Shown here piece by piece: positions 110 to 4,082 of a stretch of DNA of 4,236 nucleotides. Origin of the DNA: Escherichia coli (lineage in GTDB: Bacteria > Pseudomonadota > Gammaproteobacteria > Enterobacterales > Enterobacteriaceae); NCBI RefSeq assembly GCF_024298765.1, contig NZ_CP101215.1. One strand, written 5' to 3'. Below the pieces are notes generated by a model. It worked only from the letters and a program-made list of their open reading frames with translations, ran no database searches and was not told the DNA's origin. Position 1 is the stretch's first letter; the number at the start of each line of letters is the position of its first letter. Position numbers and translations under genes: made by a program.

Positions 110-2329
110 TCACATACTCATGCCCCGGTAATGTCCGGGGCGTCGTTGTTGTTGCCTGTGCTGTTCGTCCCGCTTCCATTCATGCCAGGTCTGATTAAAT
201 CCGAGTTGACGGAAGAGATAATCCGGCATCTCTTCCGGTTTGTTGATGGCAGCAAAAAGCGTGTCCTGACAGCCCTTAAGCCTGAACTGCATCAGCTTCG
301 GTTCCGGTGGGTACGGAGTATCAGCATCACGGTTTATGGCCTCACCGTAACCTGCCAGGTGTATCCCGTTCTCTGTGATGATGCTTACCATCAGATGACT
401 GTAATCCGGCGACGGAAGCGCAAGAACGGGACGCAGCTCGTCCTCCAGGCGCACAAAACCGACAAGCATTTCCTCCGGCCCTTCGCACAACAGCAGATTC
501 AGCGTCCTGCTGTTTCGCTCTGTCGAAAAGACAACGGGCATGAGTTGCTCCGGTGCCGCATAAGCGGTGACGTCCACCCGGTGCGCTGACGGCAGCGGAG
601 AGGCTGCGGGCCTGCGGTCGTCGCTGAAATAAAAATTATCCGGCCAGTGATGCGGCAGCGCCGGAAAACCGTAAGAGGGCCACCCCTGGCGCATCTGTTC
701 CAGTACATGCCGGACCGTCGCACCGGAATACATTCTCACACGCTCAGGCCGCGCCATCGTCTCATGAGATTCTGGCATTCCCTCACGTATATCCGAGACC
801 ATCACAGCCCCGCCTGGCGACAGGTAAACATTCACCGGGTCATGAACACTCTGGGGGTAATGCGCCAGCTCATCACCCCATACCGTGAATTCTCCGGCTC
901 TGTTACTCAGCATCATGTAGCGGGTTATCCTGCCCGTTCCCGGCTCTCTGGCACGCCCCAGCTCCGTAATAACCCCGGCTAATGCCGTTTCTCGGCTCAG
1001 GCGATGGTTATCATGGTGTTTCAGCCGTGCGTCATATTCCTGTTCCTTCCGGCGCGCTTCCGCTTCGGCTTCCTCCCTGCGCCGCTCCGCTTCCCGTGCT
1101 GACAGTTTTTCTTTCAGCTCTGCCATTCCCGGCGAAATCCACGTATTCCACTGCGTTTCAAAGGCCTGACGACGGACGGGAATGTCCCGTTCTTTCACGG
1201 CCCTGTAGGTGCGGAGAAGAGATTCAATCTGTTTCTCGAGTTTCCAGAAGCGGAGTTGTCTTTTGCGGTATTCCGGTTCAGCCCATGTCATCAGGGGAAG
1301 CTCTGACAGGATGGACGCTACCGGACGGGCTTTTCTGAGTCCGGTCATCTCTTTTTCGAGAATATCCCGCTCTTTCACCAGCGCATTCCCCTCACGTTTG
1401 ATGTCGTTTGCCTTCCCGTTCATCGCCACGAACTCCGGTGTCATCTCCCATGCGTTCCCGCATTCCTGCGGCAGTGTGGCAATGAATTCCCGCAGGGTAT
1501 CCGCTGAGGCATTCGCGGCGGGAATGGTCAGATTAAGGGCTTCCGCTGCACGACGTGCGGCATCGCTGAGTTCCCGTTTCCGCACGTTCTCCTGTACCTG
1601 GATGACTGCCAGCCTTGTGCGGGAAACCTGTATTTCCAGGTTAAGGCTGTTAATCAGGCGGTTCTGCTCACCGCGTTCTGTTTCCATGCCCCGTTTTTCC
1701 ATCGCACAGGCAGCCTTTCCGAGGTGAAGGCCCGGCGCTTTCTCCAGTCCCTGACGCTCGTATGAACGATGGTCTATCTCTTCCTGGTAGCCGGCGTTCG
1801 CAAGCGCTCTGTTCGCATGGTCAGCCCATGATGCGCGCCACGTCTCGGCGAGTGCCCGGTCGTTCCAGTCCCTGACCTTTCCTGCGAATCCCGTTTCCCC
1901 GACAGCTCTCGTGGTCAGCATGATGTGTGCATGGGGGTTGGTCCGGTCCATATGATGGAACGCCACATCGGCAATCATGCCCCGACTGACAAAGTTTTCC
2001 CGGACAAAAGCGAGAACGGCCTCCCGTGCGGCCTCGCGGGAAATCTCACGGGGAATGGCGAGTTCAATCTCCCTTGCCAGCTGGGAGTTCCGGCGCTGTT
2101 CGGCTTTCTCGACCGCATTCCAGAGAACGGAACGGTCACCACACCAGGACGGTGCATTCGCAGGGGTGAGAATGACCGCATCATCAACGCCGCGTTTACG
2201 GGTGTAATCGTGGATTAATCCGGTACGGTCATCGGGTATGACAGAGCCGGAACGGTAGGCAGCAGAAGCAACGGCACTGTAGCCGTTTTTTCGCGAAATG
2301 ATTTTCATGCTGAGATGATAAATCGCCAT
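110..2329 (-). CDS. mobA: MobA/MobL-family (MOBQ-type) conjugative relaxase with a long C-terminal extension of unknown function, about 739 aa
   Basis: A continuous 768-codon minus-strand ORF (110..2416) in the supplied track. I place the start at the internal Met (ATG at 2329-2327) because the protein then begins MAIYHLSMKIISRKNGYSAVASAAYRSGS, the conserved N-terminus of MobA/MobL relaxases (compare RSF1010 MobA, MAIYHL...), with the catalytic Tyr region near the N-terminus and a 3-His metal motif HHMDRTNPHAHIML. A WADHANRAL motif and a charged, coiled-coil-like middle section (REAERRREEAEAEARRKEQEYD) follow. The C-terminal roughly 260 residues (about 110..890) have no motif I can assign. 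Stop TGA at 110-112. Established knowledge: the MobA_MobL family signature. Inference: start codon choice. Confidence 0.9.
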   Translation of the reverse strand: MAIYHLSMKIISRKNGYSAVASAAYRSGSVIPDDRTGLIHDYTRKRGVDDAVILTPANAPSWCGDRSVLWNAVEKAEQRRNSQLAREIELAIPREISREAAREAVLAFVRENFVSRGMIADVAFHHMDRTNPHAHIMLTTRAVGETGFAGKVRDWNDRALAETWRASWADHANRALANAGYQEEIDHRSYERQGLEKAPGLHLGKAACAMEKRGMETERGEQNRLINSLNLEIQVSRTRLAVIQVQENVRKRELSDAARRAAEALNLTIPAANASADTLREFIATLPQECGNAWEMTPEFVAMNGKANDIKREGNALVKERDILEKEMTGLRKARPVASILSELPLMTWAEPEYRKRQLRFWKLEKQIESLLRTYRAVKERDIPVRRQAFETQWNTWISPGMAELKEKLSAREAERRREEAEAEARRKEQEYDARLKHHDNHRLSRETALAGVITELGRAREPGTGRITRYMMLSNRAGEFTVWGDELAHYPQSVHDPVNVYLSPGGAVMVSDIREGMPESHETMARPERVRMYSGATVRHVLEQMRQGWPSYGFPALPHHWPDNFYFSDDRRPAASPLPSAHRVDVTAYAAPEQLMPVVFSTERNSRTLNLLLCEGPEEMLVGFVRLEDELRPVLALPSPDYSHLMVSIITENGIHLAGYGEAINRDADTPYPPEPKLMQFRLKGCQDTLFAAINKPEEMPDYLFRQLGFNQTWHEWKRDEQHRQQQRRPGHYRGMSM

Positions 2330-2377
2330 TTCTGCCGTAATGCCTTTTTGCCGTTTTCTTTCAGCCCCGCAGGGCGC

Positions 2378-2425
2378 ACACAATCGAAACGAAGTGAAGA
2401 TTGTATAAGTGCGCACTTCGTGATA
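2378..2425. other. Candidate origin of transfer (oriT) with MOBQ-type nick motif, overlapping the divergent mobA/mobC promoter region
   Basis: Seen in sequence: inverted repeat ACAATC (2380-2385) and GATTGT (2399-2404) with a 13-bp spacer, followed one base later by TAAGTGCG|CAC (2406-2416). This matches the RSF1010/R1162 oriT nick core GTAAGTGCG|CCCT, which I recall from memory. A second inverted repeat, acgaagtg (2389-2396) and cacttcgt (2414-2421), brackets the putative nick. The position between divergent mobA and mobC is the canonical MOBQ arrangement. The strand and exact nick position (predicted between 2413 and 2414) are inferred. Confidence 0.55.
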
Positions 2426-2449
2426 TGCCGTGCATTATGCCAGCTCAGT

Positions 2450-2477
2450 TTTTAAACTACCAGTGACGAGCTAAAAT
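2450..2477 (+). promoter_or_regulatory. Putative mobC promoter (-35 TTTAAA, -10 TAAAAT)
   Basis: Seen in sequence: TAAAAT at 2472-2477 with TTTAAA at 2450-2455 (16-bp spacer), about 30 nt upstream of the mobC ATG at 2508; AGGAG Shine-Dalgarno at 2495-2499. By-eye hexamer match only. Confidence 0.25.
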
Positions 2478-2507
2478 GCGATTTTTCACCGCGCAAGGAG
2501 TCACGAA

Positions 2508-2974: not shown

Positions 2975-2995
2975 GTTATCTGATAAGGCTATTTG
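2953..2995 (-). other. ColE2-type origin of replication (Rep-primed ori) immediately 3' of rep
   Basis: The minus strand reads CAAATAGCCTTATCAGATAACAGCGCCTTTTCGGCGCTTTTTTGAGC, starting in the last codons of rep. From memory, the ColE2-P9 minimal origin contains AGATAAGCCTTATCAGATAACAGCGCC just downstream of rep; the exact base-by-base match is not verified here. Placement directly after the rep stop fits the known ColE2 architecture. Confidence 0.6.
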
Positions 2996-3897
2996 TGCAT
3001 TGCCCAATTACGGATCGTATTTCGATGTACATCCAGCATCGCCGCAATAGCTTTCTGAGAATATCCATTCTCCAGCATACATAGCGCCATGAAACGCTTG
3101 TCCTCGTAGGCTTCGCCTTTAGCAAGGCCACCTTTCCGGCCTCGAGCGGCCTGTACAGCGGAAAAGCCTTCCGGTGAGAATTTTCTGTGCGTGTATTTCG
3201 CAATGCTCTTGCCAATAGCCCGGCATTCAGCCAGTGAAAGAGGAACGGGAAGCGATGCGTTGTACATTTCGACACGCTGGATCACGGCATCAAGCCACTG
3301 TGAGAATGCTGGCCATCCCTGACGAATCGCTCTGTAAGCCCATTTGCGCGTCATTTCGAACAGGTGGCAGTTTCGCCCCATCCCGTAATGTTTATCGATG
3401 CTACGACGCTCTGAGGCGCTCAAATCGAGATAATCTGCCAGTTCATCGAGGGTATAGGCTTCCTCGCGCCACTCCATCACCTGCCATTCCAGGTGGAACG
3501 GATTTTTGCAAATCAGTCCGCTGTAGTTCACATCAGCACAAAGTTTCTCACACAGCGAACGTTCAATCGCGGCAGCATATTTCAGCGCCTTAACCGACGC
3601 ATCAGGCGCGGTTCTCACGGCGATATTGAGTGCATAGAGCAGGTGAGCGTGTCCGTTCACAGGATTTTTAACGGTGATGTTCGGCGCGGGGGCGTTCCGG
3701 TCGCTCCAGTCAATCGCTGCCCCCTCGCGGTCAACGTCAAAAACCAGCCAGAACTGCGCATGAGGCTGGTTCTGCTGGATGTACCGCGCAAGAAGCGCAC
3801 GCCCTTTGCCGGAGATGCGAAGGCCGAAAGCGAGATCATCCGTGTGATAGGGACGGTGGGGTAAATTTTCTTCGAAGTATTGAAGCGCGGCGCTCAT
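2989..3897 (-). CDS. rep: ColE2-family plasmid replication initiator / plasmid-specific primase Rep (302 aa)
   Basis: ORF 2989..3897 (-). RBS GGAAGGAA about 10 nt upstream of the ATG at 3897-3895; stop TAG at 2989-2991. The protein has long stretches I recognise from ColE2-P9/ColE3 Rep: YIQQNQPHA, DWSDRNAPAPNITVKNPVNGHAHLLYAL, VRTAPDAS, YAAAIERSLCEKLCADVNYSGLICKNP, YTLDELADYLDLSA, LFEMTRKWAYRAIRQGWPAFSQWLDAVIQRVEMYNASLPVPLS, ECRAIGKSIAKYTHRKFSPEGFSAVQAARGRKGG. The C-terminal tail (…ENGYSQKAIAAMLDVHRNTIRNWAMHK) looks like a helix-turn-helix, consistent with origin binding. Confidence 0.92.
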   Translation of the reverse strand: MSAALQYFEENLPHRPYHTDDLAFGLRISGKGRALLARYIQQNQPHAQFWLVFDVDREGAAIDWSDRNAPAPNITVKNPVNGHAHLLYALNIAVRTAPDASVKALKYAAAIERSLCEKLCADVNYSGLICKNPFHLEWQVMEWREEAYTLDELADYLDLSASERRSIDKHYGMGRNCHLFEMTRKWAYRAIRQGWPAFSQWLDAVIQRVEMYNASLPVPLSLAECRAIGKSIAKYTHRKFSPEGFSAVQAARGRKGGLAKGEAYEDKRFMALCMLENGYSQKAIAAMLDVHRNTIRNWAMHK

Positions 3898-4054: not shown

Positions 4055-4082
4055 ATTTACCATAACTCCCGTTGTACGTACC
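4055..4082 (-). other. Xer (XerC/XerD) site-specific recombination core site, cer/psi-like with 6-bp spacer
   Basis: The minus strand reads GGTACGTACAA-CGGGAG-TTATGGTAAAT. Compared with the ColE1 cer core as I recall it (GGTGCGTACAA-TTAAGGGA-TTATGGTAAAT), the XerD arm is identical and the XerC arm differs at one position. The central region is 6 bp, as in dif and psi, rather than the 8 bp of cer. Confidence 0.6.

Follow-up and report, generated by a model that had tools for sequence, protein, structure and literature searches.

A probable nick region within the oriT of a small ColE2-type MOBQ4 plasmid

The window, that is, the whole stretch of 4236 bases analysed here, is a complete small ColE2-type plasmid of the MOBQ4 group (MOBQ42), and we consider it highly probable (roughly 0.85) that its positions 2374–2418 are the nick region of the oriT of this mobilisable plasmid. 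The element is of an ordinary and already known kind, the oriT of the family having been delimited experimentally in 2019 (PMC6856555). An earlier note on this DNA had proposed a MOBQ oriT resembling that of RSF1010 between the divergent mobA and mobC genes. This proposal was borne out by the layout, strand and spacing of the element, by a survey of related loci, by the covariation of a hairpin (IR1) in orphan copies and by the 178-bp oriT described in PMC6856555.

In E. coli and Salmonella of clinical and food-chain origin, MOBQ4 plasmids rank among the commonest small ones, and an assignment of nick and hairpin at base level is useful for annotation and for oriT databases. Additionally, such an assignment helps predict which small plasmids devoid of a relaxase, such as ColpVC, can be carried along. 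The understanding of conjugation is left unchanged, the layout being textbook MOBQ and the family oriT already delimited. Two by-products are modestly interesting, namely a covarying pairing between a 5' box and the nick core, and the abundance of orphan oriT copies despite a cis-preferring relaxase.

The plasmid and the published oriT of its group

Three genes were found on the plasmid: a relaxase gene, a 91-codon gene and rep. The features to which we refer are the following (here and below, a slash marks the nick or candidate nick).

110–2329, minus strand: mobA, MOBQ4 relaxase of 739 aa (Pfam MobA_MobL, 2e-70; NCBIfam MobQ, 7e-78)
2330–2507, unstranded: mobA–mobC intergenic region of 178 bp, between the mobA ATG (2329, minus strand) and the mobC ATG (2508); the functionally delimited MOBQ4 oriT
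2374–2379, plus strand: 5' box GCGCAC, complementary to GTGCGC at 2409–2414; outer stem with a 4-nt ATAA bulge
2380–2404, plus strand: hairpin IR1, an exact inverted repeat of ACAATC (2380–2385), a 13-nt loop and GATTGT (2399–2404)
2389–2421, plus strand: second repeat IR2, ACGAAGTG (2389–2396), 17 nt and CACTTCGT (2414–2421); an exact 8-bp repeat spanning the nick
2406–2417, plus strand: nick core TAAGTGCG/CACT, matching the MOBQ consensus TAAGTGCGCCCT at 11 of 12 positions; putative nick between G2413 and C2414
2508–2783, plus strand: mobC, relaxase accessory protein of 91 aa; 35% identity to RSF1010 MobC over 66 aa (pairwise E = 6e-7)
2989–3897, minus strand: rep, ColE2-type (Replicase PF03090 and PriCT_1)

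The E. coli plasmid NZ_CP063498.1 is 100% identical to the window, and many 4234-bp plasmids of E. coli and Salmonella are 98–99% identical to it. Among poultry and human isolates of E. coli and Salmonella, cryptic plasmids of this near-identical 4234-bp type are common. Colicin, immunity and lysis genes were not found on the plasmid of the window. All MOBQ42 plasmids were described as colicinogenic (PMC6856555), so that the window differs from them in the lack of a colicin operon.

The start of mobA was placed at the ATG at 2329, where the conserved N-terminus MAIYHLS begins, and not at the GTG (2416) with which the listed open reading frame opens. The product is a single-tyrosine HUH relaxase with motifs I–III, cognate to the origin, in which all of the residues named in PMC6856555 (Y25, E87, E89, H125, H133 and H135) are present. 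The nearest solved relatives of its relaxase domain are NES of pLW1043 (PDB 4HT4, 9e-31), solved in complex with oriT DNA, and MobA of R1162 (2NS6, 3e-11), and the domain also scored highly against TraA models. For MobC, Pfam and NCBIfam searches returned no matching family model, and a comparison with a Sphingomonas TraD gave nothing. MobC of MOBQ4 was reported to have no homology to other accessory proteins (PMC6856555). A KVxVGA motif (...RK..T..KVxVGA..L) is common to the MobC of the window and the accessory proteins of six other MOBQ loci, and MOBQ4 MobC is detectably related to that of RSF1010, as a distant homologue.

Garcillan-Barcia et al. (2019; PMC6856555) defined MOBQ4 as comprising MOBQ41 on Rep_3 replicons, such as pIGWZ12 and pE2022_4, and MOBQ42 on ColE2 replicons, such as ColE9-J. 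The window agrees with their description in its mobA with the six residues above, its divergent mobC, its 178-bp gap and its ColE2-type Rep (PF03090 and PriCT_1). In that study, a cloned 178-bp mobC–mobA fragment was mobilised when MobA and an IncI1 helper were supplied, IncI1 plasmids such as R64 being the most efficient helpers. Mobilisation of the fragment in trans was 500–1000-fold below that in cis, the relaxase acting preferentially in cis, and deletion of mobC lowered mobilisation by 0.6–1.5 log. These results were obtained with derivatives of pE2022_4 and ColE9-J, not with the exact plasmid of the window. The gap of the window (2330–2507) has the same length of 178 bp as the published fragment, and MOBQ4 gaps more than 90% identical to it occur in hundreds of records. 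In a sensitive search with the gap as query, 672 plasmid records were matched, 501 of which cover at least 80% of it, mostly at 90–99% identity, and 171 only part of it. The MOBQ41 copy (L001) differs from the gap of the window at few positions only.

The published work delimits the oriT to 178 bp and does not give the nick position, but splitting the fragment into nt 1–70 and 71–178 abolished transfer (PMC6856555). Counted from mobA, this cut falls between 2399 and 2400, inside the right arm of IR1; counted from mobC, it falls between 2437 and 2438 and leaves the nick element intact. If the numbering runs from mobC, the inactive 71–178 fragment (2330–2437) holds the whole element, what would speak against our nick assignment. 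The split was tested in an in-trans assay that already lies about 1000-fold under the in-cis level.

The nick core and its hairpin

The 9-mer TAAGTGCGC was found at 2406–2414 on the plus strand, exactly where the earlier note had placed the nick core. By chance it is expected about 0.03 times, both strands included, in a 4.2-kb plasmid of like composition, and about 0.0006 times in the 178-bp gap on the mobC-sense strand. No other core-like match was found in the rest of the gap. From the mobA ATG it is 77 bp to the start of the core and 84 bp to the putative nick, which lies 94 bp before mobC. According to PMC3832669, Francia (2004) gave the MOBQ consensus as NWACCNNTAAGTGCGCCCTYNN, and ColE2-P9 has since that work been counted among the plasmids whose mobilisation modules are of MOBQ type. 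The sole mismatch of the window is a change from C to A at +2 (CACT versus CCCT). It counts among the points against the nick assignment. This variant is no oddity, since it recurs in other loci: TraA loci of sphingomonads (Sphingomonas) and of Kozakia regularly have CACT (TAAGCGCG/CACT), and the exact string TAAGTGCG/CACTT is found in L087 and L095, both from Clostridia. No change of the core was seen in MOBQ41 or in five of seven orphan copies, the exceptions being L019, which reads TGAGTGCG, and L023, with three bases missing.

By homology with other MOBQ origins, the nick would be located on the plus strand between G2413 and C2414; we did not find this base-level assignment stated in the papers accessible to us. 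The core also includes a 12-bp palindrome, AAGTGC-GCACTT (2407–2418), which is absent from the earlier note. As a consequence, the minus strand reads GAAGTGCGC, nearly the same as the plus strand, and it counts against the plus-strand assignment that the minus strand of this palindromic core also reads GAAGTGCG/CACT.

Strand and spacing were compared in a survey of 16 plasmid loci (24–85% relaxase identity) and 80 genomic loci (44–54% identity, 77 usable), the latter from sphingomonads, Caulobacter, Clostridia and others. For every locus, both strands of the 300 bp preceding the relaxase gene were scanned for the site closest to TAAGTGCGCCCT. This best core match was antisense to the relaxase gene, 47–111 bp from its ATG, in 15 of the 16 plasmid loci, and in 14 of these a hairpin of 6–10 bp lay 0–2 nt 5' of the core. 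Among the genomic loci the best match (at most two mismatches) was antisense to the relaxase gene in 70/77, mostly 42–205 bp from the ATG, with the core typically directly after a hairpin whose sequence differs between families. RSF1010, an Agrobacterium TraA locus and staphylococcal NES types (GCGAACG-gaa-CGTTCGC-a-TAAGTGCG/CCCT) are among the loci arranged in this manner. The window conforms to the same layout, in which an inverted repeat ends 0–2 nt before the core (8–9 nt before the nick) and the element lies antisense to and upstream of the relaxase gene, facing a divergent accessory gene.

This hairpin is IR1, whose exact arms were found as the earlier note had described them (ACAATC-N13-GATTGT). 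It ends 1 nt before the core, which starts at 2406, and 9 nt before the nick, and a hairpin of variable sequence stands at the same position in nearly all relatives. Taken alone, the inverted repeats of the gap (IR1 and IR2) lack significance, about 11% of simulated 178-mers containing three or more 6-bp repeats. The arms of IR1, however, vary together in related copies. Five of the seven orphan copies have ACAAAC/GTTTGT (here the slash separates the arms), a compensatory double change, and at the pair 26–43 of our alignment A4 four sequences have A-T and four others T-A. The covariation of IR1 exceeds that of all but 2 of 500 shuffles.

The 13-nt loop of IR1, GAAACGAAGTGAA (2386–2398), is nearly identical to the oriT hairpin loop GAACGAAGTGA of L005, a plasmid with a ColE10-type MobA of 28% relaxase identity, in which the hairpin arms differ from those of the window. 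The left arm of IR2 lies in this loop. IR2 pairing does not explain the conservation of the loop, since L005 keeps it without the right arm of IR2, and the loop itself may serve as a binding site for a protein.

The 5' box and alternative readings of the gap

The box GCGCAC, absent from the earlier note, adjoins IR1 on its 5' side. In the minimum-free-energy fold of the single strand 2366–2430 (-12.4 kcal/mol, z = -2.7), both the outer stem with its ATAA bulge and the inner hairpin are formed. An exact complement of core positions 4–8 is present in the 10 nt adjoining the hairpin on its 5' side in 27 of 61 unique MOBQ origins, versus 1.5% of control windows. The box also tracks variants of the core: GTGCG is accompanied by CGCAC in 21/27 cases, GCGTG by CACGC in both of two, TTGCG by CGCAA in one of two and GTGGG by CCCAC in one of two, the other being paired through a G-T pair. 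Pairing of box and core is likewise seen in loci L002, L016, L024, L025, L097 and others. The box is not universal, for RSF1010 does not have it.

It is possible, though we hold it with reserve, that in many MOBQ origins of enteric plasmids, sphingomonads and Clostridia the core positions 4–8 (GTGCG) pair with a 5' box, so that a longer stem, with an N-TAA bulge, reaches across the nick. In that case the core would not be a free single-stranded tail, and the stem could drive the extrusion of a cruciform or keep the cleaved 3'-OH in place until a one-tyrosine relaxase rejoins it. We found no description of such pairing in the papers accessible to us.

If the box is read on the opposite strand, another nick site comes into view: GATTGT-GTGCG/CCCTGCGG, the reverse complement of 2368–2385, cut between 2375 and 2374 and reached from the other side of the same hairpin. 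In this site GTGCGCCCT equals the RSF1010 core around the nick at 9/9 positions, with CCCT after the cut, and L002, with a relaxase of only 43% identity, also has CCCTGCGGGGCT conserved beside its mobA. Nevertheless, in 85 of 93 surveyed loci, RSF1010- and NES-type ones included, the best core match is on the other strand, the site has only 5 nt from hairpin to cut compared with 8–9 nt elsewhere, and TAA is missing. Moreover, the orphan ColpVC copies read GTGCGGTCT, with CCCT lost while the plus-strand core is intact in five of seven, and the GCGCAC box is already accounted for as the conserved complement of the core. GTGCG/CCCT (2371–2379) was therefore rejected on strand, spacing and the loss of CCCT in orphans, and a nick on the minus strand seems very unlikely to us. 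An equally slight chance attaches to a nick at the loop edge of an IR2 hairpin (2389–2421), as in rolling-circle or MOBV-type origins and unlike RSF1010. The earlier note had pointed out that this second repeat brackets the nick, and the repeat is indeed an exact one of 8 bp with its 3' arm starting precisely at the nick. In MOBQ41 both arm changes result in G-T wobbles, on the plus strand only, and the repeat persists solely by virtue of these two. Still, we found no compensatory changes in IR2, paired cells being no more frequent than in shuffles, and the repeat is broken in several functional or orphan copies (L005, L020 and L022). A perfect 8-bp repeat with a loop of 3–30 nt arises in about 7% of simulated 178-mers, and IR2 excludes the covarying IR1, is not the minimum-free-energy fold, and would put the nick at a loop–stem junction, not in a hairpin loop as in rolling-circle (dso) or MOBV-type origins. 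For want of covariation, IR2 was rejected as a functional hairpin.

The repeats might instead be operator or promoter elements of mobA and mobC, the likeness to a nick core being incidental and the true nick lying elsewhere in the 178 bp. The promoters of both genes must lie in the gap, the mob promoters of RSF1010 overlap its oriT, and a TACAAT overlapping IR1 had been read in the earlier note as the -10 element of mobA. This hexamer does overlap IR1, although as the reverse complement of 2400–2405 and not of 2399–2404. As a mobA -10 element it was discarded, for it has no usable -35 partner and a scan of 2200–2620 for sigma-70-like promoters found nothing; for the same reasons, autoregulation by the relaxosome, also suggested there, remains conjecture. 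By eye, two weak candidates can be picked out, both with 8/12 matches: CTGGTA-18-CATAAT towards mobA (reverse complement of about 2434–2463) and TTTTTA-17-TAAAAT towards mobC (2449–2477). Against an operator function stand, in addition, the conservation of the element on plasmids with no mob genes to regulate and the lack of any other core-like match in the gap that could be the true nick. We give this explanation hardly any weight, and prefer the reading of 2374–2418 as the nick region with its cut on the plus strand.

Recognition, related systems and orphan copies

Under this reading as a plus-strand nick region, and judging from NES and R1162, MobA would bind the IR1 hairpin or its nick-proximal arm (2380–2404) together with the 9-nt single-stranded tail ATAAGTGCG. 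Such recognition of the nick-proximal hairpin arm plus a single-stranded tail follows the general model of HUH relaxases (PMC4176350). The box would pair with the GTGCGC core and extend the hairpin around the ATAA bulge, and by this it might aid extrusion, present TAA, or hold the free 3' end after cleavage. MobA would then cut the plus strand at G2413/C2414, a position taken from homologous systems, and stay joined through Tyr25 to the 5' end at C2414. By analogy with its relatives, the type IV secretion system of a helper plasmid would carry MobA and the plus strand in the 5'-to-3' direction, so that mobC enters first and mobA and the hairpin last; the trailing hairpin and core would presumably let the relaxase rejoin the strand. 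MobC assists in mobilisation without being essential (PMC6856555).

The closest parallel in arrangement is found in RSF1010/R1162 (MOBQ1). With a 38-nt query for the RSF1010 oriT, 121 IncQ-type records were retrieved at 99% identity or more. In an RSF1010-type locus (L006), CCAGTTTCTC-GAA-GAGAAACCGG-TAAGTGCG/CCCT lies on the mobC-sense strand, antisense to mobA, and there mobC begins 85 bp after the nick, the mobA ATG being 113 bp away from it. The plus strand of the window, ACAATC-N13-GATTGT-A-TAAGTGCG/CACT, is arranged in the same way, and the two systems share gene order, strand, a hairpin, TAAGTGCG before the nick and a homologous MobC. They differ in the hairpin (6-bp arms and a 13-nt loop in the window, 10-bp arms and a 3-nt loop in RSF1010), in the tail before the nick (9 versus 8 nt) and in the bases after it (CACT versus CCCT). 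Furthermore, the relaxase of the window is only about 31% identical to that of RSF1010 and belongs to a type reported as cis-preferring (PMC6856555).

The NES oriT of pSK41, pGO1 and pLW1043 has a 7-bp hairpin, an 'a' and TAAGTGCG/CCCT, with the same 9-nt spacing as in the window, whereas its host is Gram-positive, its plasmids are conjugative instead of mobilisable, and the hairpin sequence is another one. Outside the enteric plasmids, the nearest core is that of Ti-plasmid-type TraA origins (MOBQ2), in sphingomonad and Kozakia loci (GTATAAGCGCG/CACT). Unlike MobA of the window, TraA relaxases are large, fused to a helicase and encoded by conjugative plasmids, with traC and traD as accessory genes.

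From the 171 records matching only part of the gap, we fetched seven (L017–L023). All of them are ColpVC or Col(MP18) plasmids of 2.0–2.7 kb, with no relaxase in their annotation and a rep gene at most. Their similarity to the window is confined to about 2364–2426, a segment that comprises the GCGCAC box, the hairpin and the core with some 12 nt after it. MOB-suite, as reported by PLSDB, types these relaxase-less orphan plasmids as mobilisable, what seems to rest on a database match to an oriT. Relaxase-less staphylococcal plasmids are known to carry mimics of the pSK41 oriT, with an identical core and an altered hairpin (PMC4993578), and the ColpVC copies may be seen as a parallel case. The abundance of orphan oriT copies is odd in view of the 500–1000-fold cis preference reported for MOBQ4 relaxases. 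In one orphan strain, RHB34-C04, the neighbouring plasmid records included no MOBQ4 plasmid, although a single strain is not informative.

Two further sequences were noticed on the minus strand of the plasmid. Just 3' of the rep stop codon, the reverse complement of about 2957–2990 reads AGCCTTATCAGATAACAGCGCC beside a GC hairpin (GCGCCGAAAAGGCGC), and this stretch looks like a ColE2-type replication origin, which the literature places downstream of rep. The reverse complement of about 4055–4082 reads GGTACGTACAA-CGGGAG-TTATGGTAAAT, which resembles the XerC/XerD core of a cer-type multimer resolution site. This fits with the description of MOBQ42 plasmids as carriers of a cer-like site (PMC6856555).
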